This document shows positions 17,135 through 43,205 of a DNA stretch of 64,000 bases, one piece after another (the first letter of the stretch is position 1; every line of letters starts with the position of its first letter). Position numbers and translations under genes: made by a program. Below the pieces are notes generated by a model, which had not been told where the DNA came from, ran no database searches, and was given only the letters and a program-made list of their open reading frames with translations. This DNA comes from a virus: IMG/VR virus record IMGVR_UViG_3300030398_000007, one strand, 5' to 3'.

Positions 17135-17209
17135 ACGAAGCCGATACATTAAAACAAAATGGCGGCTTGAGGACCAGGACAAAAATAAAAACGAAGAACG
17201 CGAGGAACG

Positions 17210-17989
17210 TTAACGTTCAGGTCCTTCAATAACAAGTTTTTTCTTTTCCAGACCAAGTTCTTTTCGCTTGGGGAATCGACCGGTCGTCAGGCAAAAAGAC
17301 GCGAGCGTTTTGACCGGAACGTCTGTCGGGATTGCCGAATCGTTCATGTTCCAAACGTTTTTGACGAAATCGGAAAAGAAAGGAATCTTTTTTCTTGTCG
17401 TCTCAAAAACTGTCAGCATGGAATAAAAAGTTCGGTCCAGCTCGCCTGGTTTAAATGAAGAAGAATCTATCAAACCGTTCGGTCGAATCGGCCAATCCAG
17501 CGTCTCAAGAATCTCGACGAATGCTGTGTTTATTGTTATTCTGGACAAGTCGATTTTGTCCGAGCCTTGAAACAGTTCCTGTTTCCATAAAGAAAAAACC
17601 ATATTCTCAGGCCAATTCCTGAAACTCGTTCCTGGCACTTGCTCCAGATCCAGGTTGTCTTTTGAATATTCCAGTTCAAGAATATAACGAGCTGGTTGGG
17701 TCCGAGGCTTTGCTGGCATTTTGTTGAGGTACAGATTCATTTTTGAGAACAAGGTCGAAGGAGTACTCTTCTTTTCGTGAATGAATGTCTTTTCAAATTC
17801 AGTCAAACGGCCGGACAAGAGAACAGTCCCATTTAGGCCAAGTCCGTCAAGAACAAAATCGGCTCTGTATCTTTGTTCTGAATTTGTAGAGCCATTGAAC
17901 GTCAGTTGTCGGCTTTTCTGGAACAACGGGATTGTTGTTTTGAATTCAGTAAAATGGCTCTCTCTTTGTGTGTCTTTGTTTGTTGCCAT
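17210..17989 (-). CDS. Member of the novel paralog family (C-terminal FCLTTGRFPKRKEL motif)
   Basis: Conserved C-terminal motif shared with 11395-11745 and related to the GRLP tails. Confidence 0.45.
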   Translation of the reverse strand: MATNKDTQRESHFTEFKTTIPLFQKSRQLTFNGSTNSEQRYRADFVLDGLGLNGTVLLSGRLTEFEKTFIHEKKSTPSTLFSKMNLYLNKMPAKPRTQPARYILELEYSKDNLDLEQVPGTSFRNWPENMVFSLWKQELFQGSDKIDLSRITINTAFVEILETLDWPIRPNGLIDSSSFKPGELDRTFYSMLTVFETTRKKIPFFSDFVKNVWNMNDSAIPTDVPVKTLASFCLTTGRFPKRKELGLEKKKLVIEGPER

Positions 17990-20279: not shown

Positions 20280-21359
20280 TTAATTAAATTCAGTTCCGCC
20301 TTTTCGTAGCAAATACTCTTCCGAAACAGACTTCAGAATTTTTCTTTCGCCAATCGCCCGAACAACAACCCCTTCCCTCATATGGACTCCGGATCCGGAA
20401 ACGGACTCTTTTCCGCTGGTTAGTTTTTCGATAACAGCCTTTGAAAATGGCCCGACATAAAGAACCGGCGTTTTTTCGGCAATTTTGATCATTTTGGATA
20501 CCAACGATTCTTGATTCCAGACGAATTGACCGTGTTCCTTGGTGGCAACGTCAAACCACCTGAACGAAAGAGTGCCTCCATATGACAAGTCCTGGACGCC
20601 TTTGCCGAACACCTCTCCAAGGACATAAACGGGATTTTCTGAGCGTCCAAACGCTACAAGTAATTGTTCAGATATTTTTTCGACCGCACGAAGGTAAATG
20701 TTATTCTTATTGCGATCGTTGTTTTTAATTGCAAGACCTTTGGCTCCAAGACCCTTGCTAAAAACGGCAATACGTTCGGAGACCAGATTTTCTGAAAAAT
20801 TCGCAGCTGTATCCGGCGGCAAAATAACCAGGCCACAGAAACTGCCATGAATTTTTTCGGTTATTTCGACGCACTCTCCTTCATTGAAAAAATCCGGAAA
20901 CTTCTTGATATTTTCCACGTCGAATGCCAATGTGTTTTCGGTCCCGAGATTGAATACTTCTCCGGCCATTGCCACCGGTATTTCCGGTTCATACTTTTTG
21001 ATACCAAGTTCTGCAGAAACGTCGTCTCCGACTTTTACCTGAATCGTTTTTCCGTCCGGAAGTTCAAGGAGATTGTTTTTTATTGGATAAACAAGTCCCT
21101 GGCTTAACACCCCTCTTAATTTGATTGCCTTGACGCGATTTTTGTTGCTGCCGGCCAGTCGTCCGACAAGACCAAGCTTTTCTATGACCGGCCCCGGCAA
21201 TACGGACGCTTCCGGAATATAAACGGCCATGTCTCCTGATTTGAACATTCCTTTGGCTACAACCGCCCTGTAATCGCCGATCCTGGCCAGATCCAATGCG
21301 TCTGCGTCCGGGTGCGGTTCGATATCAAGTTTGACGACGTCACAAGAAAAGCTGGACAT
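20280..21359 (-). CDS. ATP-dependent RNA ligase (Rnl2/Rnl5-like nucleotidyltransferase) with N-terminal tRNA-binding OB (EMAP/Trbp111-like) domain
   Basis: N-terminal VVKLDIEPHPDADALDLARIGDYRAVVAKG fits the tRNA-binding OB fold; motif I EKIHGSF (KxHG) as in T4 Rnl2 and the DraRnl/NgrRnl ligases. Confidence 0.65.
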   Translation of the reverse strand: MSSFSCDVVKLDIEPHPDADALDLARIGDYRAVVAKGMFKSGDMAVYIPEASVLPGPVIEKLGLVGRLAGSNKNRVKAIKLRGVLSQGLVYPIKNNLLELPDGKTIQVKVGDDVSAELGIKKYEPEIPVAMAGEVFNLGTENTLAFDVENIKKFPDFFNEGECVEITEKIHGSFCGLVILPPDTAANFSENLVSERIAVFSKGLGAKGLAIKNNDRNKNNIYLRAVEKISEQLLVAFGRSENPVYVLGEVFGKGVQDLSYGGTLSFRWFDVATKEHGQFVWNQESLVSKMIKIAEKTPVLYVGPFSKAVIEKLTSGKESVSGSGVHMREGVVVRAIGERKILKSVSEEYLLRKGGTEFN

Positions 21360-21790: not shown

Positions 21791-21889
21791 TTTTAGTTTT
21801 GAGATCACAAATTGTGATTTCAAGTTTTTGCCACTAGAATGAAAACAATGAAATTTTGTCAAGACAAACTCTTTTGCAGAGGATTCGAT

Positions 21890-22252
21890 ATGTCTAAAAC
21901 TCAATTCTCCGGGTTTACTGAACCAAAATTTATTACGGACCGGCGTGAAAAACTGCGTCTTGAAGCACTGGCCGAAGGCAAAAGGGCATTGGAAGCGATT
22001 CGTGAAAACGGTGGCAACGCCGTCATTTTCGGATCTGTTTTGCGGCCTGGAGAGTTCACGGAAGATTCAGACATTGATCTTTGCTTTTTGACACCAGAAA
22101 AATATCAGAACGAAGACTCGTTCAGGTTCTTTAGGCTTGCCGAATCTGCCGTTCATAATTTCCCGATTGATATTAGCTGGTTTGAAGACTTGAAGGATAC
22201 AGTAAAGGAAAAAGTAATAAAGGAGATCCAAAGTGCTTCCAATATTCGCTGA
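21890..22252 (+). CDS. Minimal nucleotidyltransferase (MNT/MntA-like antitoxin)
   Basis: GSVLRPGEFTEDSDIDL is the GSxxRGxxxxxSDxDL motif. Confidence 0.65.
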   Translation: MSKTQFSGFTEPKFITDRREKLRLEALAEGKRALEAIRENGGNAVIFGSVLRPGEFTEDSDIDLCFLTPEKYQNEDSFRFFRLAESAVHNFPIDISWFEDLKDTVKEKVIKEIQSASNIR

Positions 22253-23876: not shown

Positions 23877-24140
23877 TTGCTTAACGAAACAATCGCCATT
23901 TTCATTTTTGAAACACAGAGGCTCACCATAAACAGGACAAGGATCTTTGGATACGACAACGCTCATGGCGTCAAGACACCTGGAAAGTTCAAATATGCGG
24001 GTCGAATCATGACTCATGACCATACACACCGACACAAAGAGGATAAAGGGGTTCCTTACGAATTTCAGGACGCACAACAATTACTGATCGACTTCTTCGA
24101 GAATGTCGATCGTGTTTTGCGGGAGGCTAGAGAGAAATGA
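23877..24140 (+). CDS. Small toxin-like protein (putative TA partner)
   Basis: 87-aa ORF overlapping the downstream HTH gene by 4 nt. Confidence 0.35.
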   Translation: MLNETIAIFIFETQRLTINRTRIFGYDNAHGVKTPGKFKYAGRIMTHDHTHRHKEDKGVPYEFQDAQQLLIDFFENVDRVLREAREK

Positions 24141-24487
24141 AAGCTATCGTGATCGGGATCATGCCCCAGGAGAAGATTCGGGAGCGCATGCTGGCGATTG
24201 CTCGGGGAGAATACCACCCTTCCCCTGAAGATCCCAAAATTTGGTTCACTTCCATGAAGTCTCTCGCCGAGGTGTTAAGTGACGAGAATCGGGGGCTACT
24301 GAAGGTTATCGCCGAGATTGAACCCCAATCGATTGCCCAGTTGGCTTCCGTGACGGGCCGCAAGCCCAGCAACCTCTCCCGAACTTTGAAGACCATGGCG
24401 AACTACGGCATTGTGGATCTTAAGCGTGTACACAAAAAGGTCCTCCCAGTCGCTCGATCGACCACGTTTCGAATCGTTACCGTCTAA
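24137..24487 (+). CDS. wHTH transcriptional regulator / putative antitoxin
   Basis: IAQLASVTGRKPSNLSRTLKTMANYGIV HTH. Confidence 0.45.
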   Translation: MKAIVIGIMPQEKIRERMLAIARGEYHPSPEDPKIWFTSMKSLAEVLSDENRGLLKVIAEIEPQSIAQLASVTGRKPSNLSRTLKTMANYGIVDLKRVHKKVLPVARSTTFRIVTV

Positions 24488-24570: not shown

Positions 24571-25344
24571 ATGACAGCAAATGGCGGAAAAACAATATTG
24601 GCTATTACAGATATTAATAGAGTATTTGGCATTGATATTAAGCCGGAAATACTTAAGCCCATTAACACAAACGTTTCTGTCTCAGATCTATCGGCAAGAG
24701 AAGACTTTTTGGAAATCTTGCCGCTTACGAGGAACATACGCGTGCCGGATCCTGATATTGGCGGAGGACGTATTTCATTTACCGCCAAATTGTCTGTCGG
24801 ATTTCCGATTCTGAAGAGAAATGAAACGGTACAAAGACTAGCTTTTCGGTGTGACATAATTCATGGAAACGTCTCACATGTATTTGAACGAAAATTTTCA
24901 GATTCGTTCTGGCAACGAGAAAACATGGATTTTATGCCGATCGTTGAAAAAATCCTTTTCAAAACAAACAACTCTGCCTTGTTAAAAAGAAGAGCATTGG
25001 GATTTAAATCAACGCTTTCAGTTGCTTCCGTGCTGTCTCCTCTCCAAAGACAACAGAGATTGACAGACAAAGAGGTTTCTGTTCTAAGCGATTTTTTAAA
25101 TACACACAGTGTAACTTATTCAAATTCAGGAAATGAGACAGCTAAAATAAAAGGACTAAAAGTCAGTCCTCCAGTTAAGATTTGTTCAGGATATCTTCCG
25201 AATATATGGACACTGAAAGATCTGGCCGCATGGGTGCTTGTTACGGATAGGTGGCCAACGCTTTCCGAAGCGAGAAAGTTGCAGCGCGAGAATCAGATTA
25301 AAATGAACAGACTAATGGCCGATTTGGAGACCGAAAGGACATAG
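24571..25344 (+). CDS. Novel paralog family member A (C-terminal NIWTLKDLAAWVLVTDRWPTLSEARKL)
   Basis: Conserved C-terminal module shared with six other ORFs in the window. Confidence 0.5.
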   Translation: MTANGGKTILAITDINRVFGIDIKPEILKPINTNVSVSDLSAREDFLEILPLTRNIRVPDPDIGGGRISFTAKLSVGFPILKRNETVQRLAFRCDIIHGNVSHVFERKFSDSFWQRENMDFMPIVEKILFKTNNSALLKRRALGFKSTLSVASVLSPLQRQQRLTDKEVSVLSDFLNTHSVTYSNSGNETAKIKGLKVSPPVKICSGYLPNIWTLKDLAAWVLVTDRWPTLSEARKLQRENQIKMNRLMADLETERT

Positions 25345-25443
25345 AAGGTTTAGAATTTTGTTTTTCACACAACGATTATTGATATTTGTTTTTTAAAACG
25401 ATATAATATATAAAACAAAAAACACAAACAAGAAGGGAACGTC

Positions 25444-26643
25444 ATGGAAAAACTTTATACGGAACTGAAAAACGGAAAACTCAGGCTGTGGGCTGACGTC
25501 AACATGGTCGAATCAGACGCTCTGGCTCAATCTGAAAACGTATCGAGTCTGCCGATACTGGCCGGACCTGTAGCCCTTATGCCAGACGTTCACCTTGGAA
25601 AGGGTGCTACTGTCGGAAGTGTCATTCCGACAAGAAAAGCCATAATCCCTGCTTCTGTCGGGGTCGACATTGGTTGCGGCATGCTTGCTGTAAAATTTAA
25701 CATGCGTGCCAATGATTTGCCTCAAAATTTGTCGTCTGTCAGAAGGGCTATTGAATCTGTCGTTCCAGTCGGGTTTAGCGAAAATACGGAAGAAAAAACA
25801 GATCGTGACGCAAGCCAATTGCTGGCTGGTGGGTTTCGCCGAATAGTCGAAAAAGCACCGGGGTTGTTGGACAACCGAAAAACAAAAGATTCATGGACCA
25901 GACAAATCGGTTCTCTTGGTGGAGGAAACCATTTTGTCGAATTGTCATTAGACGAAGAAGGCTCGGTGTGGCTCATGCTGCATTCTGGCTCACGAGGAAT
26001 TGGAAACGCGATTGGCACCTACTATGTTGAACGGGCAAAGGAGTATTCTTTGTCTATGGGATATAATCTCCCGGACAAGGATCTGGCCTGGCTTGACGAA
26101 GGAACTCCTTTTTTCGACGAATACTGGTTTGCATTGGAATGGGCACAACAATATGCAAGGGAAAACAGGCGTGTCATGTATTCCAGGATCCGTACCGTCT
26201 TAAAAGAGTTTTTTCCGCACATTCAAGTAGAAGGAACAATCGTCAATTGTCACCACAACTATTGCAGTATTGAAAAACTGCCTTCCGGAGAAGAGATTTA
26301 TCTGACGCGAAAAGGCGCAATATCTGCAAAGAAGGACGAATGGGGCATTATTCCCGGGAGCATGGGAACCCGTTCGTTTATCGTCAAGGGACTCGGCAAT
26401 GACGCCTCATATCAGTCCTGCTCGCATGGTGCCGGTAGACGTATGAGCAGAGGAAAGGCCAAGAAAGTTTTTACCCAGGAAGATCTGGCCGAACAAACCA
26501 AGGGAGTAGAATGCCGGAAGGACGCAGGTGTAATCGACGAGATTCCTGGTGCCTACAAAGATATTGACGACGTTATGCGCAGGCAGTCAGACCTGGTGAC
26601 GCCGGTACATGTGCTGAAACAGGTTTTGTGTGTAAAAGGTTAA
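25444..26643 (+). CDS. rtcB: RtcB RNA 3'-phosphate ligase
   Basis: GGGNHFVEL, HSGSRGIGN and C-terminal SCSHGAGRRMSRGKAKK (catalytic His); length 399 aa. Confidence 0.85.
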   Translation: MEKLYTELKNGKLRLWADVNMVESDALAQSENVSSLPILAGPVALMPDVHLGKGATVGSVIPTRKAIIPASVGVDIGCGMLAVKFNMRANDLPQNLSSVRRAIESVVPVGFSENTEEKTDRDASQLLAGGFRRIVEKAPGLLDNRKTKDSWTRQIGSLGGGNHFVELSLDEEGSVWLMLHSGSRGIGNAIGTYYVERAKEYSLSMGYNLPDKDLAWLDEGTPFFDEYWFALEWAQQYARENRRVMYSRIRTVLKEFFPHIQVEGTIVNCHHNYCSIEKLPSGEEIYLTRKGAISAKKDEWGIIPGSMGTRSFIVKGLGNDASYQSCSHGAGRRMSRGKAKKVFTQEDLAEQTKGVECRKDAGVIDEIPGAYKDIDDVMRRQSDLVTPVHVLKQVLCVKG

Positions 26644-26714
26644 GGAAGGAGAAAAGATTAAATACTTCGTTCTTTTTACAAAGAATCAAAAGAGAAGTCA
26701 CTTAAGGGGGAACG

Positions 26715-27160
26715 GTGACGCAGAAAGATTTTTTTGTTTTTGGAACAAGTGTCAAAATGTCACAATTCAGAGTGGACAATGGCGTTTTTGACGACAAAAA
26801 CCTTATTCCTGGACTTGATTCCCCTTTCATGGACGCAGACGGACACATGTGGCGTCTCAAACTTGTTCGTTCAACACTTGGGCAATTTTTATTTATGGTT
26901 TGCCACAAAGAGAAATTTTTTGAGCTGGCCGTTTTCACGTCAAAACGAAACGTTCTGAGACAACCGTTCCAGTTTGCCTTCCCGGTATTACGGGCCTATG
27001 CGGTTGGGCCAGACGGAACAGCCACTCCGACAGCTTTTATGTATGGACTTGCAAAAGACTTCCGACTATGAGAGAAGCAAGGAAACTCCAGACCGAATTT
27101 GGTTTTAGAGGGAGAAATGTTGAAAGAACTTGAGTGGGAATCCTCAATCAAAAATATCTG
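26715..27160 (+). CDS. Novel paralog family member C, frameshifted near 27040-27070 (conserved tail CKRLPTMREARKL lies in the +2 frame)
   Basis: Frame 0 ends AKDFRL*; the +2 frame continues SFYVWTCKRLPTMREARKLQTEF, matching the family C-terminus. Confidence 0.4.
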
Positions 27161-27808
27161 CCCTTCGACAAAAAAGACCCAATTTTTTGGTGTCGATTCT
27201 TATTTCTTGCCACCCAAACCGGATTCACAATTTCAGGAGCTGAAAGTTCCTGGATTTGACGATCCATTTGTGTATGCGCAAGAAACCTCGACAAGGCTTT
27301 TGGCCAGATTTTATACCGGAACCTTGAAAGATCTTCCAAACGTTCTGCAATTCGGAATAATATGTATTAGGGAAGACACGGGAAAATTTCAATTTTCAAC
27401 CATATTTGGAAATATTTCTTGCGAAAATCCTTTTTTGTCGAAAGATCAAAAAAATTCAAACCGTTTTTGGAGGCTCTTGTAAAAAACGACAAACTTCCAG
27501 GAAAAAGTTTTCTGTTTGCTGCAGCCATTATTGGTCACACAAAAGAGGTTTCTTCAACAAAGCCATTATCCGAAAGAGAGATTTCCATTCTCGTTGGCTT
27601 TATCTCCAGTCGTTATTACAATCATTTTATCCCACTAAAGTCTGACGGTATTACACATTTCAGTCTGACTAAAATAGCCGATTCGTTTGGAAGTGCGGGA
27701 GAAGACATACTAGGATATTTGCCAATGGCTTGGTCATTAAAAGATTTGGCCTCATGGCTATTGATTTGCGGAAGGTTGCCGACTATGGAGGAAGCCAAGA
27801 AGTTTTAG
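27117..27808 (+). CDS. Novel paralog family member B, two ORFs (27099-27482 and 27419-27808) joined by a frameshift at T6/A7 tracts around 27425-27455
   Basis: The combined length ~230 aa matches intact members; C-terminus MAWSLKDLASWLLICGRLPTMEEAKKF. Confidence 0.4.
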
Positions 27809-27878
27809 AAGGAATCTATTTTGAGCGCAAGAACTGTCGAACGAGAGTTGTCATAAAGAAAGAATCTAGCCCCCCTTA

Positions 27879-28124
27879 TTAAACAATTTCTGTCACTTTT
27901 GACAAATCTAAAATTTTTTTGACAAACATTTCAGAAATAATTCCAGTCTTGATTTTGTTGACTCTTTCAGCTACAGCCTTTTCTTTGTTGTATACCGAGA
28001 ATTCTTTTTGCCTGTCATACATTTTTTCTGCCATAACTTGTGCAAGATCGTTTACGGCTTCCAGTTCGGCTTTTGTCAATCCATAAGGGTATTCTTTGAC
28101 AATAATATGTTCAGCTTGCAACAT
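27879..28124 (-). CDS. Hypothetical small protein downstream of MTase (14-nt overlap)
   Basis: ORF only. Confidence 0.3.
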   Translation of the reverse strand: MLQAEHIIVKEYPYGLTKAELEAVNDLAQVMAEKMYDRQKEFSVYNKEKAVAERVNKIKTGIISEMFVKKILDLSKVTEIV

Positions 28125-29151
28125 GGCTCTGTTCTTCTAAACGTGGCAGGTATTCAGACAATCTTTGTTTGGCGAAATCACCTGGCTCTTTTTCGTCGCT
28201 TAATCCTAACTCACAAGACACAAAATGAAGACCAGCTTTTGCTGCAGCAATGGAGGCATTTCCGCTTCCGCAAAACATATCCAATAATGTATCTCCAGGA
28301 TTTGAAAATGCGGTGAATACACGTTTTAGAAGTTCAACTGGCTTCGCCGTTTGGAACCCTGGTATCCCTGCCTGATAAAAACCAAGGAAGGACGGAATTT
28401 TTTGGGAATAGGTGTCTCCAATGCTTTGGAAGTAAGAGTTTCCAGAAATGAACTTGCCGTTCAAGCCGCTTTTATCTTTTACTCCTTTAATGAAATACAA
28501 ATTCGATTCGCTATATCCAGGTAACTGTTTGACAAACGAAACATAGCGTTCACTCCCATGACCTTTTTGTGCTGTTCGTTTTTGATACCGTTGGCCGCCG
28601 AACCCGACCGTATTTCGTTCAAGAGACCAGCCAGTTTTTGGAATGCAAACAACTTTTTTCTGGCCAAAGACAATTTCTGTATAATTTTCCATTCTATCTT
28701 CAAGCTTTATACCATAAGGATACCGAGACACTTTTTCTTCTGTTACCGTTATGTGTTCCGGTCTGGAAACAATCTTTTCGTCTGAGGCAACCAGAATGTA
28801 TTCGTGGCAAACGGTCATAATGGAGTTGACATTGTTATTATTGCCTTCCGACTTTGTCTGCCACACGAACGGAGGAGCCACCACATTGAAATTGTCTCGG
28901 AGAAGGTCGGCAAGATCGAATAAAGAATCTTCGGCTATTGAGAAGATAAACGGAGCTGTTGAACTTGAGCGTTTTTTTGCAGCCTTGATACGAATATCCA
29001 TGAAGTCGATCCAATGGCTTCTCTTCCCTTTGTCTGAATACCGAAACTGATTGCCGGTATTGTACGGAGGATCCATATAGACAAGGTCAAAGACTTGTTG
29101 CGTCTTGTTAAGAAAATCCAGATTGTCTCCAATAAAAAGCTGTCCGCTCAT
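28111..29151 (-). CDS. DNA methyltransferase (beta-class; DPPY then FCGSG)
   Basis: LVYMDPPYNTG near the N-terminus and LLDMFCGSGNASIAAAKAG near the C-terminus. Confidence 0.8.
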   Translation of the reverse strand: MSGQLFIGDNLDFLNKTQQVFDLVYMDPPYNTGNQFRYSDKGKRSHWIDFMDIRIKAAKKRSSSTAPFIFSIAEDSLFDLADLLRDNFNVVAPPFVWQTKSEGNNNNVNSIMTVCHEYILVASDEKIVSRPEHITVTEEKVSRYPYGIKLEDRMENYTEIVFGQKKVVCIPKTGWSLERNTVGFGGQRYQKRTAQKGHGSERYVSFVKQLPGYSESNLYFIKGVKDKSGLNGKFISGNSYFQSIGDTYSQKIPSFLGFYQAGIPGFQTAKPVELLKRVFTAFSNPGDTLLDMFCGSGNASIAAAKAGLHFVSCELGLSDEKEPGDFAKQRLSEYLPRLEEQSHVAS

Positions 29152-29381
29152 GAATGTTCCCCTCCTTTTGTTTTTATATTATATATAATATGTTTTAGGA
29201 AAACAACGTTCAGGAGATTTGTTTAGTTGTTTGTTTTGCGAATGGGAATAAAGGAGAAAATAATCGACAATTTCTTTGGTGGAAAATACCCGTTGTTTTT
29301 TATGACATTGTTGGCTTTTCAGAAGGTTACCTTTCTTCGTGAGTCATTTCCCTTCTCCCTGATCCACCAAGAATGAGTTTT

Positions 29382-29879
29382 TCAACAGTATCCAGAACGC
29401 CGTGTTTTTTCGGCGGCAGACAAAACTGCTGCACGAATTTCTGGCCTGACACGAACAAGATTGGCAACGTCCAGAAGATCTTGTGGTCCGCCAGCATAAC
29501 ATTTCAGTGATACGAGGTCTTCCAGGCTGCAAATAGATAGTCCAAAATCTTCAATCGAAATGCCTTTTTCTACACTGCTGTGCGCGACTTGTGGAATAAT
29601 GTCGAATTTTACACCGTCAATATAACCGCGAACAACCCACGGCAAAGGATCACCTGGTTCTCCGAAACTCAATTTTCCGAGTATTCCGTTTTCAGACAGG
29701 ACTTTGACAATTTCTCTTGGAGATCCACTGGCAATAAAATCCACGTCTATTGTTCCACGAACATAACCAAAAGCGGCCAGGGCTAGTCCACCAATTAAGG
29801 CACAGGAATCTTGGCCAATTGCCGTAGCGATTTTTCTGGCACAATCAAGGAGATTCTTTGGCGATTCACGTTCTTTCAT
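29382..29879 (-). CDS. Nucleotidyltransferase (AbiEii/DUF-NTase-like, putative toxin)
   Basis: ALIGGLALAAFGYVRGTIDVDFI is the GG...R.T.DIDF NTase motif. Confidence 0.5.
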   Translation of the reverse strand: MKERESPKNLLDCARKIATAIGQDSCALIGGLALAAFGYVRGTIDVDFIASGSPREIVKVLSENGILGKLSFGEPGDPLPWVVRGYIDGVKFDIIPQVAHSSVEKGISIEDFGLSICSLEDLVSLKCYAGGPQDLLDVANLVRVRPEIRAAVLSAAEKTRRSGYC

Positions 29880-30031
29880 GAACGTCCTTGATTTTTGTCT
29901 TGAATGTCAATGCGAGATCAATTTGCTCTGCTGAAATGCTAGAGCACAATAATAATCTTTCTATGACAGACTCCTTGTCCATAAGGACAGGCTGTTTCGA
30001 TTTGCGAAAATTTAAATTTTCAACGTTCATG
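29869..30031 (-). CDS. Small ORF (53 aa) overlapping the NTase start by 11 nt; putative partner/antitoxin
   Basis: GGAG RBS, translationally coupled overlap ATGAAAGAACGTGA. Confidence 0.3.
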
Positions 30032-30573
30032 AATTTCTCCAAAAATAAGCTACAGCGGGTAGCGAATTTTATTCTCCTGTTGTTTCAATATGGTAATGTA
30101 CAAGACAACTTTAACACAAACTACAAAATTGTAGAACTTGTCCGAAACGGTTTGTGTTGAGAAATGATATTATGATTTAAAATGGAAATTGTTCCATTTT
30201 TACATTTCCTTTTAACAAGGAGGTCTTTATACCCAAAAAAATTTTTCAGGCGGCCATGATTGGTATTATGGCTATTGGATTGTCTTCTTGTAGCACCGAT
30301 TTCCATTATGCTTCTTTATCAGGCAGCTTTTGATTACGAAGCTCAAGAGAAAATTGCAAAATTGCACCTCATTTCCGTAGAAGCCGTAAATGAATTCCTT
30401 GAGCAAATCAATTCAAGAGGAGGCTTGCCGGTTGAATCTACAATTGAAGCGATAAAGTCCATTTGGAGAGATTCAAAAACTCCATGGTCGGTTTTTTATG
30501 TTGAGGGAGAAGCAGATCAAAAACTATCTGTAGAGAGACTTCTTTTCGCAATAAGAAATATATAAACATTCGT

Positions 30574-31362
30574 TTGCCAACAATCTCAATAAAAAACGAG
30601 ACGAAAAATCAAATGTTGTTTATTTTCTATTTTGTTTTATTAAGCTTTTCTGCTTTATGGCCAGGACATTTTTTTCCATTAGGCGTGTTGTTTGTATTAA
30701 CGACAAATTTTGCTGCGTCGATAGAAAAAGCCATTTTAAAAGCCACAACTCTTTTGACCTTGTTGCCACCATTTCTTTTTTATGGACTTTTGTCCCTAAA
30801 TCATTGGCCGTTGATATTCAGATATTCCATTCCATACACAAATGGGGAAACAAAGCTTCCAAGTACAAGTACATGGTTTTATTACTATTTCGACTTTTGG
30901 AATAAGCAAGGGCTCTCTTTTAGAAAGCATTTGGAAATTTTGCACCCCAATCTGGCTGCAGAATACAGCTTGACAATCTTTGTTTTAACAATCGTTTGCC
31001 AATTGTTGTTTTCATTTATTAATCAGAGCATTGAGAAAAAACGATTGGAAAAAATGGAGGTTCTCAAAAAATCAGTTGAATCGCAAAAAAATGACGCTTG
31101 CGTTGTCGCCAAAGAATCCGATTCGGATTTTGAATTAATTGATTATTCTGAAATAAAAAAACCAATTTATTGCGATCTTAGAAAAAAGAACCAAAAATTT
31201 CCGGATTGGGCTATTGGTATACCAAAATGGCTTGACGTAGAAATTGGAAAAAATATTCCTGTGACAAAGAAAAATGGAGCAATCGAATCTGCGATCATTG
31301 GCAAATTTAGAGGGAAAAATAAAAACGGAGATAGATTTTATTATAGATACTACATGGATTAA
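30574..31362 (+). CDS. Hypothetical polytopic membrane protein
   Basis: Four hydrophobic helices followed by a soluble C-terminal domain. Confidence 0.4.
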   Translation: MPTISIKNETKNQMLFIFYFVLLSFSALWPGHFFPLGVLFVLTTNFAASIEKAILKATTLLTLLPPFLFYGLLSLNHWPLIFRYSIPYTNGETKLPSTSTWFYYYFDFWNKQGLSFRKHLEILHPNLAAEYSLTIFVLTIVCQLLFSFINQSIEKKRLEKMEVLKKSVESQKNDACVVAKESDSDFELIDYSEIKKPIYCDLRKKNQKFPDWAIGIPKWLDVEIGKNIPVTKKNGAIESAIIGKFRGKNKNGDRFYYRYYMD

Positions 31363-31385
31363 TAATATTATTTTGGAGCCAAAAA

Positions 31386-31892
31386 ATGCCAGATACCACC
31401 ACAAAACCTCGGCTTCGTGATAAAAACGGAAAAAATTATTCCGACCTGAACGAAGTCGATCCACCATTGAAAATCAATAATCCAGACGATTACCTTTCTC
31501 CTGCTGGCCTTCTTGAAGACTTTTATTATATCACAGACACATTGTTGTGGGACGAAAAGGCCCTCAGCAAATCAGACAAAATATTGAGGCTTTTATATCC
31601 GATCTTTCAGGAAGGAGATTATACCGGATATGACCAGATTGGTGGCTGGCGTATGTATTTTGACTCTGACGCATGGGTTTCATACAATTGGGGCGCTCTT
31701 AAAAGAGACCCGACTTGGGAATCTGAAGATCTTGATTCCTTCCTTGAGGACGATCCTCTTTGCATTCCTACATGTATACCTGTGAGCTTTCTCGCTTCGT
31801 TTATTGTTGTTTACGGTCGTCTTCCAAGTCTCAGGGAAGCCTGGTTACTGGCGTGGAAACACAGGAATCCGGAATTTGTTAATACCCTTTAA
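31386..31892 (+). CDS. Novel paralog family member E (short N-terminus; C-terminal FLASFIVVYGRLPSLREAWLL)
   Basis: Conserved GRLP tail. Confidence 0.45.
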   Translation: MPDTTTKPRLRDKNGKNYSDLNEVDPPLKINNPDDYLSPAGLLEDFYYITDTLLWDEKALSKSDKILRLLYPIFQEGDYTGYDQIGGWRMYFDSDAWVSYNWGALKRDPTWESEDLDSFLEDDPLCIPTCIPVSFLASFIVVYGRLPSLREAWLLAWKHRNPEFVNTL

Positions 31893-32008
31893 CAAACCGC
31901 TCGTTTTTCAAGACTCGTTTATGGGTTTGTTTTGCGAACATGAATAATAGAGCAATTGACAAATCTATAACAATAGTATATATTCTTTGCAGAATATGGA
32001 GGAGATTT

Positions 32009-32548
32009 ATGACGTCTTTTCAACAAAACTTCAACTTTCCACACGAAGATCGTCAATTTGGCGGAAACAGTCTCTTTGTCGACCTCATTCCGGCCACCTC
32101 CTGGTTCAAAAATGTCCGATCGGAAATTCCCAAAAAAGTATGGGATTCCATACGAAAATCTGTTTATGCCAGGGCCAATGATACCTGCGAGATCTGCGGA
32201 AGAACCCCTGCGAAAAAAAACGGAGACAGAATTGAATGTCACGAACGGTGGGAATACCTGCCGGGTCCAAAACCGGGAACGGGCATTCAACGACTCAAAA
32301 GATTCATTGCATTGTGTTCCGCCTGTCATGAGTCCACTCATATGGGTCTGGCAGAAGTCAGAGGCCGGGGAGAAATTGCCAAGGCTCATTTTAAAAAAGT
32401 GACCGGAATGTCGGACCAGGAAGTTCGAAAACACATTAGACAAGCGTTCGAGATTTGGGAAAGAAGATCGGAAATGGAGTGGATACTGGAAATGCCTTTG
32501 CTGGAAGATCTTATCCCGACTATTTCCGGCAACAAAAAGGAATGTTGA
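32009..32548 (+). CDS. Zn-ribbon/HNH-like protein (CxxC...HxxW...CxxCH)
   Basis: CEICGRTPAKKNGDRIECHERWEY...CSACHESTH; RBS TGGAGGAG. Confidence 0.4.
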   Translation: MTSFQQNFNFPHEDRQFGGNSLFVDLIPATSWFKNVRSEIPKKVWDSIRKSVYARANDTCEICGRTPAKKNGDRIECHERWEYLPGPKPGTGIQRLKRFIALCSACHESTHMGLAEVRGRGEIAKAHFKKVTGMSDQEVRKHIRQAFEIWERRSEMEWILEMPLLEDLIPTISGNKKEC

Positions 32549-33276
32549 GCGTGGCTAAAAATGAAGTTACTGACGGTCTTGTGAAACTGTTTGGTCGGCG
32601 ATATAGCTACAGACAACAGAATAGACGCTTTTCGATTGCCGGATTGTCGGAACCTTTTTATTACAAAAAGCCGGATTCGAGAACAAGAACCACTTCTTAC
32701 GTTGAAGACCTTTTTGGTGATTCTCAGTCGGCACTTGCAAAAGCAAAACTGGAGTTTTCAATTGGTGCCGAAGCAGGTGATCTTAAATTAAATTTTTACC
32801 TTTTATCTGCCCCAAAAGACGCAGATTATTATCATTCTTTTACATGGCTTGGACGGTTGCCAGTAGACAATCCCGTTCTTTCCGGAAAAACAACTCACGT
32901 CCGTCAGATTTTCGAATCCAGTATCAATATGTATGGCTCCACTGGCAAGAGCCCTTTTGTCCCTTGTCTGGAAGTTTTGGGGGCGACCGAACTCGGACTG
33001 AATCACTCAGATCTCTCTAAACATTTGCCGAGGCTTTTAACCTGGTGCTTTAGACGTACTCCTATGAGCATGAGAACACATTCAGAATCGTTGCCGGACA
33101 CCACTTCGTTTGCCCTTTATCCTGAAGGTTTTGGCTATATCCCAAAAGAAGCCACATTGAAAGACATTATGATTTTTTTAACAGCTTTGGACAGACTGCC
33201 AAACGAAAGTGAAACACTTGAGTTGAGAAAACGGATTGCGTCAAGGGCAAAAAATGATTTGGATTTTGGCAGATAG
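32455..33276 (+). CDS. Novel paralog family member D (C-terminal GYIPKEATLKDIMIFLTALDRLPNESETLELRK)
   Basis: Conserved tail; the start is possibly at 32542. Confidence 0.45.
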   Translation: MGKKIGNGVDTGNAFAGRSYPDYFRQQKGMLSVAKNEVTDGLVKLFGRRYSYRQQNRRFSIAGLSEPFYYKKPDSRTRTTSYVEDLFGDSQSALAKAKLEFSIGAEAGDLKLNFYLLSAPKDADYYHSFTWLGRLPVDNPVLSGKTTHVRQIFESSINMYGSTGKSPFVPCLEVLGATELGLNHSDLSKHLPRLLTWCFRRTPMSMRTHSESLPDTTSFALYPEGFGYIPKEATLKDIMIFLTALDRLPNESETLELRKRIASRAKNDLDFGR

Positions 33277-35491: not shown

Positions 35492-36811
35492 TCACCTTGA
35501 CGATCGTTCGGAATCGGTCCTTGATTTTTGTGGCCCATGTACATTCTGGAAATTTTTGGATATTTTCTCGGCCAATCCTTTTGGCACCCCACTTTGTTTG
35601 GCTATCTCTGGCCATTGCTGAACGGACTCTTCCACCTCTTGAACGATTCCGGTTATTTCTGTTCTGGAAAAATTAAACTCTTCGCCAAGATTCATAATGT
35701 TTTGCCATACCGGTTTTTTGTATTCTCCCATAACGGAAGTTGAATGCTCTCCGCCTGGACCATACGAGAACAACAAATCATATGCCGGAGAAGCCTTCCA
35801 CTTCCCATTTTTGTCCATAATGAAAGAGAAGTTTCTGGCATGATCGTCACGATTATGTGTGACAATATTGAAGACCATTTGGCGAAACAAAGAAATCGCG
35901 TTTCTTTTGTCTCCGGTTAATTTTGCGGATATTGACAGCAAGTGTTTGTAGTCGCAAACTGACTGCCCTGGTTCCATTCCCAATAGTCCGCCAAGGGTAT
36001 GCTGGTGGACCCGATTACCAAACACATTGTCGGTTCCATTTGAAGAATCTTGAACACGATCAAATCTTTGTATGCAAAATGCCTTTTGCTTCCCCACCTG
36101 AATCAGTCTTGTTTCAGGTATTGTTATACCGGCACGCCTGGCCAAAATAGAATAGGCATATTCCGTTTCGCACTCGTAATGGCCAAGGGCTTCTGATTTT
36201 ACGGGAAATTTGACAATGTGCGGCACATATCCGGCCGGTATGTCTTCCGTTCCCGAAATGACATTGTCATTTGGATCAATTCCGGCCAGTATTTTTGGCC
36301 TTGCACCTCCCGGCGAACCACCAAGTCTGGCGAGTTTTGGCAAAACGTCGCTTGCCGTTCCTTCGTGAACATGTTCTACGCCAGCCAGTAGGTCGGAAAG
36401 GTCAAGCAAGGAAGAAGATTTGTCCGATTCTGACCTGTCCGGATAATAGACGAGAGCGCCCATGCCTCTGCTGCCAATAAGCGCCAGGCGATCCAATGGC
36501 CCGACCTCGGAAGGGGAGAGACCATTTGCTGCAAGAAAACGATCGACGACAAGCCGGCCCCACCCGTCAGAAAGAGATTCCGCAAAGGCAAATGGCAGGC
36601 CCTGAGAATATCGTCCTGTTGGACCAAATACGGGTTGTTCGGAAAGCGGCAACTTAAACGGAGAAATCTGTAAGCCACTTTTGACAAACTCTTTTGAATA
36701 TTGGAAGGCCACTTTCCCGTCCACCAGCGCCAGGATCCCGACAACAATCTCCTTTTCAGGCAAAAACCTTAAACAAACAGACACTTTTTCGAGTTTTTTA
36801 AATGCAGCCAT
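35492..36811 (-). CDS. hipA: HipA-family serine/threonine kinase toxin
   Basis: GSRGMGALVYYP...LARLGGSPGGARPKIL and THNRDDHARNFSF kinase motifs; 439 aa. Confidence 0.8.
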   Translation of the reverse strand: MAAFKKLEKVSVCLRFLPEKEIVVGILALVDGKVAFQYSKEFVKSGLQISPFKLPLSEQPVFGPTGRYSQGLPFAFAESLSDGWGRLVVDRFLAANGLSPSEVGPLDRLALIGSRGMGALVYYPDRSESDKSSSLLDLSDLLAGVEHVHEGTASDVLPKLARLGGSPGGARPKILAGIDPNDNVISGTEDIPAGYVPHIVKFPVKSEALGHYECETEYAYSILARRAGITIPETRLIQVGKQKAFCIQRFDRVQDSSNGTDNVFGNRVHQHTLGGLLGMEPGQSVCDYKHLLSISAKLTGDKRNAISLFRQMVFNIVTHNRDDHARNFSFIMDKNGKWKASPAYDLLFSYGPGGEHSTSVMGEYKKPVWQNIMNLGEEFNFSRTEITGIVQEVEESVQQWPEIAKQSGVPKGLAEKISKNFQNVHGPQKSRTDSERSSR

Positions 36812-37123
36812 TCAATCTCCTTTATGCCTGGCGCGTTTTCTTTCCGACTTGTTTTCTAGAGCAAAAAGATCTGGAATAACCTTTGACTCAAACATTGAAG
36901 ACAGATCGTCCGTTTTATGAATGACAAATGCCAGTTTGACAAGACTTTTCAGAGATATCTGTCCTGATTGCTCAAATTTTTTGAGCGTCCCATGCGAAAC
37001 GCCAGAACGGTTTGCCAAATCCATTTGAGTAAGGTTCATTTTAATTCTGCAAGTTTTGAGGTCTTTGGCTATTTTTAACATGATTTCTTTTTCTGTGAGC
37101 AAAACCGGAAATTCCGTATCCAT
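36812..37123 (-). CDS. hipB: HipB-like XRE-family HTH antitoxin
   Basis: MNLTQMDLANRSGVSHGTLKKFEQ HTH; adjacent and upstream of hipA. Confidence 0.7.
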   Translation of the reverse strand: MDTEFPVLLTEKEIMLKIAKDLKTCRIKMNLTQMDLANRSGVSHGTLKKFEQSGQISLKSLVKLAFVIHKTDDLSSMFESKVIPDLFALENKSERKRARHKGD

Positions 37124-37285: not shown

Positions 37286-38404
37286 TTATCTGACCAAATC
37301 AATCTCCCCTTCCAAAACCCTCTCCACCAGCGTCGTGCTTTTTCCACTTCGATAATCCTTCACTAAAGCCGCCGGCGCAAAAACATACGACCGGACCCTA
37401 TGACCAAAGTCTGCTGGACCACCAGCCCGGAGATTGGCCTCCTTTTCTTTTCGCCTGGCAGCTCGTTCTTTCTCCGACAAAAGAGATTTCAGCTTTTCTA
37501 TGGCAATGGCCCTGTTCCGTTCCTGTGTTCGTTCCTCCTGGCAGGTTACGACAATTCCGGTCGGTTTGTGTGTTAGTCGAACGGCCGTTTCGACCTTGTT
37601 GACGTTTTGTCCGCCCTTTCCGGAAGACCGAAAGAATCCGATCTCGATATCCTCCTGCAAGATTTCTGTCCGGCTTTCTTCCAGCGGTTCTGTCCATACG
37701 GAGACTCCGGCAAAGGAGGTTTGCCGCCTCCCTCCCCTGCCGTATGGAGAAAATCGGGACAATCGGTGGGAGATCCGGTTTCAGAAGTAAGATCCGACAA
37801 GAGAATGGTCTCTGATTTCAACAGAACGCGCCTGAATCCTGTCTCCGTTTCTTCTGCGTCAATGATTTGCAGGTCGCGTCTTTTTAACAGAATGGCGCCT
37901 TGTATCTCCGCCATAAATGGCGGAGATACAAGGCGTGTTTCACTATTTTTATTGTAACGCACAACATGATATAATGCTTATCATGAAGAATAAAAAGACT
38001 CGGGCTGGAGTCTTTGGCGCGTAGCGCCTAGAAGCTCCTTCCTTTCAGGGAGGGGAGCAGTCACCCTGGCATAACCAAGATACATGGCGGCCAGCATTTG
38101 CTTCAATCCCTCCCGTTCCGGCCAGAATGGACATAAAGAGATTCTCTTCCTGGAGGGATTGTTTGGCGAAACAAGAATCGAGACTGTTTGATTTCTGATA
38201 TTGGATTAACAGAGGAATTGTTTCGGCAAGAATATTTATGGCCTGGTTCGATTCTCTTTCAAAAAAAAGAATGTTGTCAGAATCCAGATACTGGCATTGA
38301 AGAGCTTCTTTTGCCGTTTCCAGGTCGTCAATTGCGGACGACATACGTTTATGTGCCGAAAGCATAATCGAGGCCTGACGAAGCGTTTTGAGCGGTCTGG
38401 ACAA
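37286..38404 (-). pseudogene. Class I peptide chain release factor gene interrupted by the MITE at 37889-38066 and carrying a frameshift at a T-tract near 37775
   Basis: N-part (38404-38070) contains ILAGTGGIEA (RF2 AGSGGTEA). After the MITE: AEETETGFRRVLL (RF ETGVHRLVRKSPFDS), then in the -1 frame [13 protein letters not shown]...[21 protein letters not shown] (GGQ domain). The first ~20 codons of the 37962 ORF are encoded by the MITE inverted repeat. Confidence 0.65.
37889..38066 (+). mobile_element. Miniature IS605-family derivative (LE+RE), second copy, inserted in the release-factor gene
   Basis: acagaatggcgccttgtatctccgccat... (LE) to ...ggaggggagcagtcac (RE); ~90% identical to 4330-4467. 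Confidence 0.75.
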
Positions 38405-39340: not shown

Positions 39341-39679
39341 CTATCGTTCGATCTCGGTGTCTTTCCCGGCATTTTCAAAAGCCAATACAAAATCTTTTGG
39401 AGGAACACGCCGGAAACGCTCAAAATCCTTAATTGTTGCTGGTCTTAAGTCTTTCTTGAGGGCGCTTGTTGGTTCGGCCGGTCCATGGAAGGCTCCTGGT
39501 GCGGCCAAAATACAAAGTCTCACGGAGAAGTAGTCGTTCGGTCCCCTGACTTCTCCGAGATATTTCCCAGTTTCGGTATTTTTAAAAATATATCCAAGGC
39601 ACTCGCCTTTCAAGGCCAAAGGATAAGGAGCAACCACGTATTCGATAGAGTATTTCCCGTCTACGTACGGCAATTCCAT
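39341..39679 (-). CDS. Hypothetical protein, paralog of the C-terminal domain of 39967-40575
   Basis: Shared motifs GECLGYI...AAPG...DLRPATIKDFERF...PKDFV...IER. Confidence 0.4.
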   Translation of the reverse strand: MELPYVDGKYSIEYVVAPYPLALKGECLGYIFKNTETGKYLGEVRGPNDYFSVRLCILAAPGAFHGPAEPTSALKKDLRPATIKDFERFRRVPPKDFVLAFENAGKDTEIER

Positions 39680-39966
39680 TTGTTTACCTCCACCAAGATT
39701 TAGTGACGAACACAACTTCTGTACTCAGTCAAAACAAAAAAGCCGGAAACCCTTTCGGATCCTCGGCTTTTAAAGCCAAAAATGTTTCCGCAAAAGGTTA
39801 AACCATGCTCTCTCCCTCTAGGCTATAGAAATAGCTCGACGGGCTGGATAGACACAATAATGAGAGCAATGATAAATCTTTCACGAAAATCTCCTTTTTG
39901 AAAGACGTTTTAATGAACAAAAACATTATAGCATACTAAAAATGTTGTTTGCAAGCAGACAAACAA

Positions 39967-40575
39967 TTAACGTTCTATTCCGTTTTTCTCTTTTTCTTCC
40001 ACAAAATCCTTCGGACACATGACCTTGAATCGATCGAAGTCTTTTCGTGTTGCCGGTCTCAAATCACTGATATGAACAGAAACAGGAGTATTTTTTGGGT
40101 CAGAGCCAGGTGCCGATAAAACACCAATGGCCACCCATGGACCCTGGTTGTTTTTTCTTTCCTTGTCAATGTATCCGAGACATTCACCGCCCATGGCCAG
40201 AGAATGTTTGGCCACGACATATTTTGTCTTTTCTGGCATTTTATCAAAAACAAGAATCTCCGAATCCGTTAATTGACAAATTTTTTCTGAAAGCTCTTCG
40301 ACGATTCTATTTATTTTTCTGAAAACCTCTTTTGGCACGGCTTTTAACGGAATCTCAACCTCATTGTTAAAAGAGGTGTCTATATTGGACCGATAATCGT
40401 TCATGTCGCATTTGATTGGCCTGGACATTTGGCAGACGCCTTGCGGAGAATCGGCGTTTTCCGAAAGTGTGAATTCAAAAACGGTATGTGGATAGGGCTC
40501 GACGGCAAATGTGTATCTGTCAAAAGTTTTTCCACCATTGTCAAGAATGATAAATGGAACTGATTTTTGTGCCAT
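39967..40575 (-). CDS. Hypothetical two-domain protein (C-terminal domain paralogous to 39341-39679)
   Basis: Shared motifs as above. Confidence 0.4.
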   Translation of the reverse strand: MAQKSVPFIILDNGGKTFDRYTFAVEPYPHTVFEFTLSENADSPQGVCQMSRPIKCDMNDYRSNIDTSFNNEVEIPLKAVPKEVFRKINRIVEELSEKICQLTDSEILVFDKMPEKTKYVVAKHSLAMGGECLGYIDKERKNNQGPWVAIGVLSAPGSDPKNTPVSVHISDLRPATRKDFDRFKVMCPKDFVEEKEKNGIER

Positions 40576-41314: not shown

Positions 41315-42523
41315 TTAAGCAAATACCAGGTCGGTTCCTGCCAATGCGTAAGACTCTACGTTTGATCCCATGCTTTGGGACTCTCCTTCTGACGAAGGAG
41401 AACAGGCTAACTGGGCGTGTCCCGCCCTTACGGCATTCAATGCGCCGACATAGTCGGCGTTCGCGGTAAAACCGCATTTGACACAGGCAAAGGTCTCTTG
41501 AGTCTTCCGATTGTCCGGAGAGACGTATCTACACGTCTCGACCGGACAGGTCTGACTTGTATACGCCGGAGGAACTCGCAAGAGCTGTCCGCCGTTCCAT
41601 GACAGCTTGTACTCGAGTTGTCTCCGGAACTCTCCCCACCCAAGAGAAAGAATCGCTTTGTTCAGTCCCTTCTTGCCCTTCCCTGATTTCGTCATTTTCT
41701 GAACCTTCAGATCCTCGACGACCACCACCGCGTGGTTTTTGCTGATCGCGGTCGTCGCTTTATGCAGAAAGTCCTTTCTGACGTTTGTAATCTTTTCATA
41801 GAGACGACCAAGCTTTAGCCTGGCTTTTGATCGGTTCTTCGAACCTTTCTTTTTTCTTGAAAGGCTTTGGTGCAGTTGCGTCAGTCGTTTCTCAAACCGC
41901 TCCACGAGGTTAGGGGCGGTGATTCCTTCGTTCTCTCCGGTGGAGAACGCCGCGAAGCGAGCGACGCCGAGATCAATTCCGAGAACTTCGCCTTTTGGAG
42001 TGACAGGATCGATCTCTTGTGCTGTGAGAATGGAAACGTACCACTTCCCGCAGGAGTATCGTATCGTGGCCTGGCGGACGGTGCCTTTCAGGGCACGACT
42101 CTTCCGGTACCGGATCTCACCGAGTTTGGGGAGCGCGATCCGGGAACGCTCTTCGTCGACACGGACGGTTTTCTTGTCCGGAAAGGTAATCGTATCGTTT
42201 TTTCCCTTTTTGTGGAAAACTGGGTGGTCCGCTTCTTTTTTGAAGAAGCGGATATAAGCCGTGGTTAGGTTCTCCACAGCGCATTGCAGGCCCTGAGACT
42301 GGGTTTTTCTGAGCCATTCCGTTTCTGGATCCTTTTTCCAGGAGGTGAGTGTTTTTGCCAAGTAAACATACCCTGGAAAGGGTTTGTTATCCTTGTGAAG
42401 ATCTTCGACCAAACTCAAGGCTTTATTGTAGACAAACCGACAGGAACCGGCATACTGCCGGAGAAGCAAGTCCTGTTGTTTTGTCGGTTCCAGTCTAAAG
42501 GAATAGGCTTTTAATATTTTCAT
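41315..42523 (-). CDS. tnpB: TnpB (IS605 OrfB-family RNA-guided nuclease)
   Basis: 402 aa; N-terminal KILKAYSFRLEPTKQQ, RuvC-like core, C-terminal Zn-finger CPVETCRYVSPDNRKTQETFACVKCGF and RuvC-III NADYVGALN. Confidence 0.85.
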   Translation of the reverse strand: MKILKAYSFRLEPTKQQDLLLRQYAGSCRFVYNKALSLVEDLHKDNKPFPGYVYLAKTLTSWKKDPETEWLRKTQSQGLQCAVENLTTAYIRFFKKEADHPVFHKKGKNDTITFPDKKTVRVDEERSRIALPKLGEIRYRKSRALKGTVRQATIRYSCGKWYVSILTAQEIDPVTPKGEVLGIDLGVARFAAFSTGENEGITAPNLVERFEKRLTQLHQSLSRKKKGSKNRSKARLKLGRLYEKITNVRKDFLHKATTAISKNHAVVVVEDLKVQKMTKSGKGKKGLNKAILSLGWGEFRRQLEYKLSWNGGQLLRVPPAYTSQTCPVETCRYVSPDNRKTQETFACVKCGFTANADYVGALNAVRAGHAQLACSPSSEGESQSMGSNVESYALAGTDLVFA

Positions 42524-43128: not shown

Positions 43129-43205
43129 TGGCGCCCCTGGCAGGATTTGAACCCGCGACCCTCTCGTTCGTAGCGAGACGCTCTTATCCTCTGAGCTACA
43201 GGGGC
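43129..43205 (-). tRNA. tRNA-Arg (anticodon ACG)
   Basis: Reverse complement gives acceptor gcccctg/caggggc-g-CCA, anticodon stem tctcg/cgaga with loop ctACGaa, T-stem gcggg/cctgc. Confidence 0.8.

Follow-up and report, generated by a model that had tools for sequence, protein, structure and literature searches.

Effectors of type IV secretion systems (T4SSs) are divergent proteins that have a common VirD4-binding C-terminal domain, and radC and orphan methyltransferases are typical of the leading regions of plasmids and integrative and conjugative elements (ICEs), where anti-restriction, anti-SOS and anti-CRISPR genes cluster. A further point of comparison is the helicase-associated (HA) domain (PF03457), which PMC12191111, citing Mills (2013), calls DNA-binding. 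Here we compare with these systems a set of seven tail-bearing open reading frames (ORFs), members A to G, in a 64,000-nt stretch of the virus record IMGVR_UViG_3300030398_000007 (hereafter, the window). A sequence-only reading had proposed that these ORFs form a previously unrecognised multigene family around rtcB, in which a conserved C-terminal tail is fused to unrelated N-terminal parts. The tail proved to be genuine, and the members read better as old, unevenly diverged paralogues than as cargo domains with a tag.

Like T4SS effectors, the family combines a conserved C-terminus with divergent N-terminal parts and has several copies per genome, but no secretion system co-occurs with it in the sequences seen, no toxin or enzyme domains accompany it, its motif can be internal, and its genes form an operon of conserved order with one fusion to a replication protein. 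With plasmid and ICE accessory or leading regions the family shares flanking radC and N6/N4 methyltransferase genes, toxin-antitoxin pairs, co-directional small genes of no known function and turnover between strains. The HA domain resembles the tail in having a helix, a G-(R/H)-x-P turn and a second helix, and its repeats in protein P0022 give a weak profile match; HA domains, however, are tandem repeats on helicases and nucleases, whereas the family has one copy of the motif (rarely two) at the end of a novel body of 200 aa.

A conserved C-terminal hairpin

A six-frame search of the window with the pattern [G/D/K]R[L/W/F]PxxxE gave matches at the seven named places and nowhere else. To avoid circularity, a tail hidden Markov model (HMM) was built only from tails outside the window (contigs L001 and L004 and database homologues), and with this external tail HMM the seven window copies are the top seven of 1,324 six-frame ORFs (17.6 to 56.3 bits, E 1.4e-16 to 1.8e-4), the eighth-ranked ORF having an E-value of 0.013. 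A broader tail HMM of the same kind scored at most 9.4 bits in a negative control of 861 kb from 80 unrelated genomes. The pattern scan and the external HMM confirm the common C-terminal motif that had been read from the sequence, and the similarity is still significant under profile-profile alignment, in which the B-type and C-type subfamily profiles match over the C-terminal 51 columns only (88% probability, E 2.8e-6). Identity between subfamilies is 34% in the tail and 14% in the body. Codons at the conserved tail residues vary by copy (GGA or GGT for Gly; CGA, AGG, AGA or CGT for Arg; CCG, CCA, CCC or CCT for Pro), and the conservation is therefore at the protein level, ruling out a DNA repeat translated by chance. 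The most conserved part of the family is a tail of ~35 aa, a hairpin consisting of a helix (..P..h.LKDLA.F.L..), a turn (G/D-R-F/L/W-P) and a second helix (..E....). We conclude that the seven window genes truly share the conserved C-terminal helix-GR(F/L/W)P-helix of a rare family without known relatives.

Members B and C are intact. The gene for C (24571 to 25344, plus strand, 257 aa) has the tail that best matches the external HMM (about 25183 to 25293, GYLPNIWTLKDLAAWVLVTDRWPTLSEARKL; 56.3 bits), and its orthologues are P0001 (98% identical) and P0002 (68%). Member B (17210 to 17989, minus strand, 259 aa), of the B-type, has a tail at about 17234 to 17344 (IPTDVPVKTLASFCLTTGRFPKRKEL) that scores 50.4 bits, and homologues P0003 to P0009, P0011 and P0012. 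Member F (31386 to 31892, plus strand, 168 aa), with orthologue P0015, is a short acidic form whose tail (about 31752 to 31862, CIPVSFLASFIVVYGRLPSLREAWLL) scores 19.5 bits with the external HMM and 54.6 bits with the broader one. Member G (32542 to 33276, plus strand, ~244 aa) lies in an ORF that opens at 32455 and probably starts at the ATG at 32542; its tail (about 33127 to 33237, GYIPKEATLKDIMIFLTALDRLPNESETLEL) scores 23.7 bits with the external HMM, its orthologue is P0010 and its body clusters with those of L087_2 and L090_3. Members A, D and E are damaged and are described below. A plus-strand stretch at 4437 to 4619 (YWPSELPVKTFESILLTCGDLPRTIEKSIEL), downstream of a GNAT gene and without a start codon, is a possible eighth, degenerate remnant, which we name with low confidence (E 0.013 with the external tail HMM, only 5.3 bits with the broader one).

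The stop codon of B lies within a perfect palindrome of 14 nt, GAACGTTAACGTTC (17205 to 17218), which recurs across the stop codon of the third B-type gene of L004 (L004:6712-7533), and a copy with two mismatches lies at 16238 to 16251, just downstream of the CCA-adding enzyme gene. As a candidate origin of the '..ER' ends common to many family proteins it was rejected, having a single exact copy in the window while the codons of the other genes differ. Two further ORFs, at 39341 to 39715 and 39967 to 40575, look like a second small paralogous set that shares 'GECLGYI', 'LRPATxKDFxRF' and '..IER' ends, and the ORF at 42712 to 43053 likewise ends in '..IER', echoing the '..ER' ends of the main family. 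This similarity, too, is at the protein level because the codons differ.

Distribution and relation to known domains

Orphan families are common in metagenomes, and by sequence comparison we rate this one as outside every known family tested. Neither Pfam nor NCBIfam gave a match to the family, PADLOC and PHROGs gave no significant match (best E 0.026 and 0.07, respectively, on unrelated models), and profile searches of PDB sequences, the tail profile included, returned nothing relevant. A set of 5.8 billion clustered proteins yielded two matches of the C-type and five of the B-type. An exhaustive family-profile search of 1.84 billion representatives produced 20 matches at E<1e-3. Eighteen of them are members, whole or fragmentary, and the remaining two are P0022, which has five HA repeats, and one long protein that we regard as repeat noise because an N-terminal segment of the profile fits nine short stretches of it. 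No relatives were found in 185,579 species reference genomes, IMG/VR, PLSDB or phage genomes, and a scan of Joint Genome Institute (JGI) metagenomes revealed one related locus, L086, which is ACXJ01012496.1, an unassigned contig of the Richmond Mine acid-mine-drainage biofilm metagenome (PMC2745766). The family is known only from a few metagenome contigs that are related to one another, among them this one from acid-mine drainage. The view that it is an unrecognised multigene family is borne out, with a tail of ~35 aa and at least 10 body types that cannot be linked by BLAST.

The match to P0022 bears on an explanation that overlaps our own, namely that the tail is related to the HA repeat, though diverged and truncated, and that the family is a group of DNA-binding proteins. 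The family profile finds P0022 at E 1.5e-4, and hhalign aligns the tail with its repeats at 62.6% probability (E 7e-5) over 28 columns only ('LAAW.EANGRWPK' with 'LA.F.LATGRFPK'); the DNA binding for which HA domains are cited in PMC12191111 would also suit proteins that are mostly basic. The score of P0022 is, however, the sum of five near-identical repeats of ~7 bits each, and the match is weak and, in a three-helix unit of ~60 aa, takes in the first helix and the turn but nothing beyond them. The Pfam HA model (gathering score 28.4 bits) matched none of eight window ORFs or seven further members, 17 isolated tails gave nothing against it even at E 10 (control P0022, 78 bits), and the tail profile found no HA chain among PDB sequences. 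Because the Pfam model failed and only the first helix and turn align, we do not count the family as a member of HA, and we regard descent of the tail from an HA repeat as improbable. A helix-turn-helix (HTH) of the AlpA or excisionase type, to which 'G.FP.P' after the recognition helix had pointed, was also rejected, as neither members nor tails matched Phage_AlpA or HTH_17 in Pfam or NCBIfam.

Divergence of the bodies and predicted structure

Bodies were compared by BLAST and by profile-profile alignment after removal of the tails. The claim that the N-terminal parts are unrelated to one another stands in part: no relationship could be detected between the bodies of B, A and F and those of C, E and G (B against C, E and G, E 0.3 to 0.5), and A is not clearly linked to B (E 0.02), but the bodies of C and E are homologous (94% probability, E 8.6e-8, 147 columns) and those of E and G marginally similar (E 1.5e-3). 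Clustering of ~35 bodies gave at least 10 types. Across ~40 members no recognisable domain was found in the bodies, yet nearly all members are 207 to 273 aa long and most are basic (pI 8.4 to 10.2). A family-wide alignment contains weak collinear motifs, with hFG or hFQ in the N-terminal part, 'SF..WPE / SFWQRE' in the middle, and 'FV.I.E.L.W' and 'L...F', and hhalign in permissive mode extends the body alignments collinearly. The missing domains, the uniform length, the collinear motifs and a relative in which a PriCT-1 protein is fused to a whole B-like body all speak against a tail module on unrelated cargo; judged from these alignments, old paralogues that diverged unevenly would fit better. 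We infer full-length common descent rather than demonstrate it, because no significant similarity connects the bodies of B, A and F with those of C, E and G. If this reading is right, a conserved tail on variable heads can come from uneven divergence of old paralogues, with no domain shuffling.

An AlphaFold model of C made with a 22-sequence family-wide alignment reached a predicted local distance difference test (pLDDT) score of 79.9 and a predicted template modelling score of 0.72, whereas a model of B made with five close homologues was not usable (pLDDT 36), a difference that also points to a common origin of the members. The C model places beta strands within residues 28 to 108, helices at 122 to 177 and a three-stranded segment at 179 to 210, followed by the tail, which is modelled as a helix at 215 to 225 (LKDLAAWVLVT), a DRWPT turn and a helix at 231 to 255. 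Residues 201 to 240 have pLDDT values of 91 to 96 and the tail helices are the best-predicted part. Members are predicted to be rich in beta structure in their N-terminal half and helical in their C-terminal half, which ends in the hairpin. The model of C has no structural analogue in the PDB or among viral structures (BFVD), and the novelty of the fold holds relative to these two sets only, as they are the ones compared.

The model also bears on the proposal that the tail is a portable targeting, secretion or docking peptide on unrelated cargo, forming an effector or immunity repertoire that would be served by an FhaC/FhaB pair or by a system elsewhere. Such a peptide would account for a tail found on at least 10 types of body among which sequence comparison reveals no link, and effectors with conserved C-terminal recognition domains would offer an analogy. 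An FhaC/ShlB-like transporter and a 1151-aa FhaB-like protein with a two-partner secretion (TPS) domain are encoded beside member A (5488 to 11196). A well-ordered helical hairpin that is the most confident part of the model is not what a secretion tag would lead one to expect, and the motif is also internal in tandem pairs of 353- to 359-aa proteins at L004:9163-11303 and L100:7755-9901, which carry it twice (internal 'YGRLPYPNE', C-terminal 'TGRFP.LKE') and have no counterpart in the window. The TPS domain (PF05860) that the neighbouring FhaC would require is present in the 1151-aa protein and in no family member, no toxin or enzyme domain is recognisable in any member, T4SS and type VI secretion system genes are absent from the window, and the PriCT-1 fusion contains body and tail together. 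The C-terminal region of the FhaB-like protein has neither a recognisable toxin domain nor a VENN motif. A role in immunity to contact-dependent inhibition or polymorphic toxins finds as little support, as A is convergent to the fhaB-like gene, not co-oriented downstream of it, and there is no Pfam Imm match. We consider a secretion or targeting signal quite improbable.

Gene order in relatives and the rtcB neighbourhood

Better-preserved relatives have five to seven paralogue types in a co-directional array, whereas the window set is scattered. Contig L087 (5.7 kb) encodes a protein with PriCT-1 and HTH domains, the last ~230 aa of which are a B-like family domain including the tail, followed by an AAA_28 gene and five consecutive family genes; the first four genes of this array overlap by 1 to 14 nt. 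The window yielded no PriCT-1 replicase. In L090, a 24-kb contig, a radC gene on the opposite strand precedes six co-directional family genes and a seventh that is truncated beside a TnpB gene, with junctions that vary between a gap of 2 nt and an overlap of 29 nt. Downstream are two small membrane proteins and then an N6_N4 methyltransferase. The order of body types is identical in L087 and L090 (type3, G, type5, C, type4). B-type genes lie elsewhere in relatives, after DUF5131, in 4, 3, 2 or 1 tandem copies depending on the strain, and TnpB genes are found within or beside the family arrays of L090 and L001. The two small membrane proteins of L090 (L090:12325-13154) end in 'YLFLLRxSGR(K/P)..(L/V)EY.QLK', which is loosely like the family hairpin.

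Clustering around rtcB had been part of the initial proposal, with five of the seven genes said to flank it. The window RtcB gene (25444 to 26643) is flanked only by C and by D/E, F and G being ~5 to 6 kb away, and in relatives the link is absent: L001 has a GNAT gene in place of rtcB between its orthologues of C and E, and the C-type gene of L090 is directly followed by further family members. Adjacency to rtcB is not conserved among relatives. The best matches of the window RtcB are 53 to 59% identical over nearly full length and come from several phyla, one 137-residue fragment being 66% identical. An MNT gene precedes C in L001, which prompted a HEPN-like reading of C; it was dropped because the R-x4-H motif of C is not conserved in P0002.

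The family sits among genes of mobile-element and defence type, including radC, orphan methyltransferases, toxin-antitoxin pairs, TnpB and RNA-repair genes. This setting suits an alternative in which the proteins form an anti-defence or establishment repertoire, each paralogue acting alone against host defence or stress and the hairpin binding a common class of target or stabilising the protein. Neighbours such as radC, orphan N6/N4 and Dam-type methyltransferases, toxin-antitoxin pairs, the tRNA array and the RNA-repair genes would be in keeping with it, as would the very fast divergence of the bodies, the varying copy number and loss of genes between strains, and the confinement of homologues to a narrow lineage. 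On the other hand, the PADLOC and PHROG families are unmatched, the members are mostly basic and not acidic DNA mimics, and neither conjugation genes nor an origin of transfer was seen in the window or in the loci of relatives. The five-type order is kept in two contigs with many gene overlaps, which argues for joint function and against independent anti-defence proteins. We hold a repertoire of this kind to be unlikely, although it deserves serious weight.

A putative shared interface

Our preferred explanation is that the hairpin is an integral shared interface and that the paralogues act jointly or on one common partner. As a whole we favour it tentatively, at somewhat less than an even chance, and more hesitantly still where function is concerned. 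The ORFs would belong to one lineage-restricted family of mostly basic proteins, mostly of 207 to 273 aa and with no recognised secretion domain, whose paralogues would be old duplicates that have diverged everywhere but in the hairpin. As a putative structural element and common interface, the hairpin would either join the paralogues into a hetero-oligomer or attach every one of them to one common partner, for which DNA or the element's replication proteins are candidates. A mobile element would rely on the resulting complex for its replication, establishment or maintenance, and the rtcB neighbourhood of the window would derive from later insertions and rearrangements. Our best guess, made with low confidence, is that the proteins are subunits of a mobile-element complex acting on DNA with the hairpin as their shared interface; pI values of 8.4 to 10.2 are compatible with binding of nucleic acids.

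Several points weigh against this explanation. The bodies of B, A and F lack a statistical link to those of C, E and G, the conserved gene order is known from two contigs only (L087 and L090), and the link to replication is a single fusion in L087, a contig that breaks off at the 5' end of the fused gene. The 1 to 4 tandem copies of the B-type gene between strains would fit better with a dispensable, diversifying repertoire than with a complex of fixed stoichiometry, and the basic pI may merely mirror the host proteome. A bolder version of the shared-interface explanation, in which at least five ancient paralogues of a new fold are joined through their hairpins into a multi-protein mobile-element machine that works with a primase or replicase (for example a replication-establishment, partition or anti-defence complex of a new kind), appears rather unlikely. 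If the operon reading is true, little-sampled communities, acid-mine drainage among them, would harbour a new fold and a new multi-paralogue mobile-element module, tied to DNA replication by gene fusion and undescribed in family and structure libraries.

Decay of the window members and homopolymer tracts

The coding state of A, D and E identifies them as pseudogenes in the window. Member A (11395 to 12016, minus strand) consists of a tail ORF at 11395 to 11745 and an N-terminal part in two other frames, with frameshifts located by three-frame view and tblastn at an A6 tract (11758 to 11763, plus strand) and near 11827 to 11831; relative to its intact 207-aa orthologue P0013 two frame changes are required, both in A/T runs. 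Member D (26715 to 27133, plus strand) is a truncated, frameshifted remnant, with a body from 26715 to ~27030 in one frame and a tail, FYVWTCKRLPTMREARKL...VERT, in another frame ending at 27133, that scores 17.6 bits with the external HMM. Member E (27117 to 27808, plus strand) is a pseudogene of the C/E type that is frameshifted at an A7 homopolymer (27448 to 27454, plus strand), where A8 would restore DQKKFKPF, and stops at a TAG (27806 to 27808) in the place of a Gln of its orthologues, the old frame running on to ~27856 (..TVERELS). In its intact orthologue, P0014 (L001:2074-2769, 231 aa), the gene is continuous, and tblastn of window E gives two frames.

The sequence-only reading had two members split at T6 and A7 tracts, possibly by slipped-strand phase variation. 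E is indeed broken at the A7, but the T6 tract plays no part; D is frameshifted as well, though as a truncated remnant mostly missing from another assembly, and the two frameshifts of A had been overlooked. What phase variation has in its favour is that each of the three frameshifts mapped in A and E lies in an A/T run and that gene A of L086, 99% identical to that of the window and with the same first frameshift, departs from it in the length of two tracts (T6/T7 and A7/A6). In L005, an independent JGI assembly 99.6% identical to the window, however, the A7 of E is identical, and bases 26786 to 27127 are missing, a 342-bp presence/absence polymorphism that takes out most of D. E also has its premature TAG, A has two lesions, and runs of at least six identical bases are about as dense in family genes (4.8 per kb) as in the window on average (4.4 per kb). 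A phase-variable contingency locus would be an intact gene with a variable tract as its sole lesion, a description that fits neither E, A nor D. Nor is damage restricted to the family: the CCA-adding enzyme gene, an unrelated neighbour, has a frameshift near 15765 outside any homopolymer, truncation has shortened DUF5131 and two hypothetical genes in comparison with L004 and L086, and the PrfH-like RF-1-domain ORF (37286 to 37762) looks truncated. Because unrelated neighbours (CCA enzyme, DUF5131 and probably prfH) are damaged too, we interpret the lesions as decay of the whole region and not as a family-specific switch, and we judge phase-variable contingency genes switched by slippage to be highly improbable. 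For annotation, A, D and E should be marked as pseudogenes, and the family should be given no functional tie to rtcB.

Other features of the window

Several genes of the window are concerned with RNA. Twelve tRNA genes lie within ~1.1 kb at 930 to 1999 (Met, Gln x2, Thr x3, Lys x2, Arg x3 and Ile), and a second tRNA-Arg(acg) and tRNA-Lys(ttt) are found on the opposite strand 41 kb away (43129 to 43320), ~77 to 80% identical to the array copies. The CCA-adding enzyme (13866 to 16255) has a unique N-terminal extension of ~330 aa and is frameshifted here but intact in L086 and L004 (758 to 759 aa). An RNA ligase (PF09414) is encoded at 20280 to 21359. PrfH is the usual partner of RtcB2, and the RF-1-domain ORF mentioned above looks like a fragment of a PrfH-like protein. 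Together the RNA-repair genes and the tRNA array could be an anti-toxin or anti-defence RNA-repair island.

Toxin-antitoxin and nucleotidyltransferase modules are located at 23877 to 24487, 35492 to 37123, 21839 to 22252, 29382 to 29879 and 44697 to 45224. They comprise a TumE-like gene with a winged HTH of the HVO_A0114 type, an MNT, two DUF6036 nucleotidyltransferases, and a putative HipA-like ORF with an adjacent XRE/HipB-like ORF, the last two assigned from the sequence. The right part of the window holds a type I-F CRISPR-Cas locus (54813 to 62788; Csy1-like, Csy3, Cas1 and a Cas2-Cas3 fusion), followed by a CRISPR array with seven copies of a 30-nt repeat at 60-nt spacing (62845 to 63234) and, at 63918 to 64000, the window end, by the beginning of a second array with a different repeat.

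Two TnpB (IS605 OrfB) genes are present at 41315 to 42523 and 45238 to 46389. A 75-nt repeat that resembles an element end occurs in three copies, at 4394 to 4468, 37990 to 38064 and 45205 to 45279, one of which adjoins the possible family remnant at 4437 to 4619. A 91-nt direct repeat (47935 to 48025 and 48331 to 48421, 96.7% identical) flanks a small ORF at 47996 to 48334.

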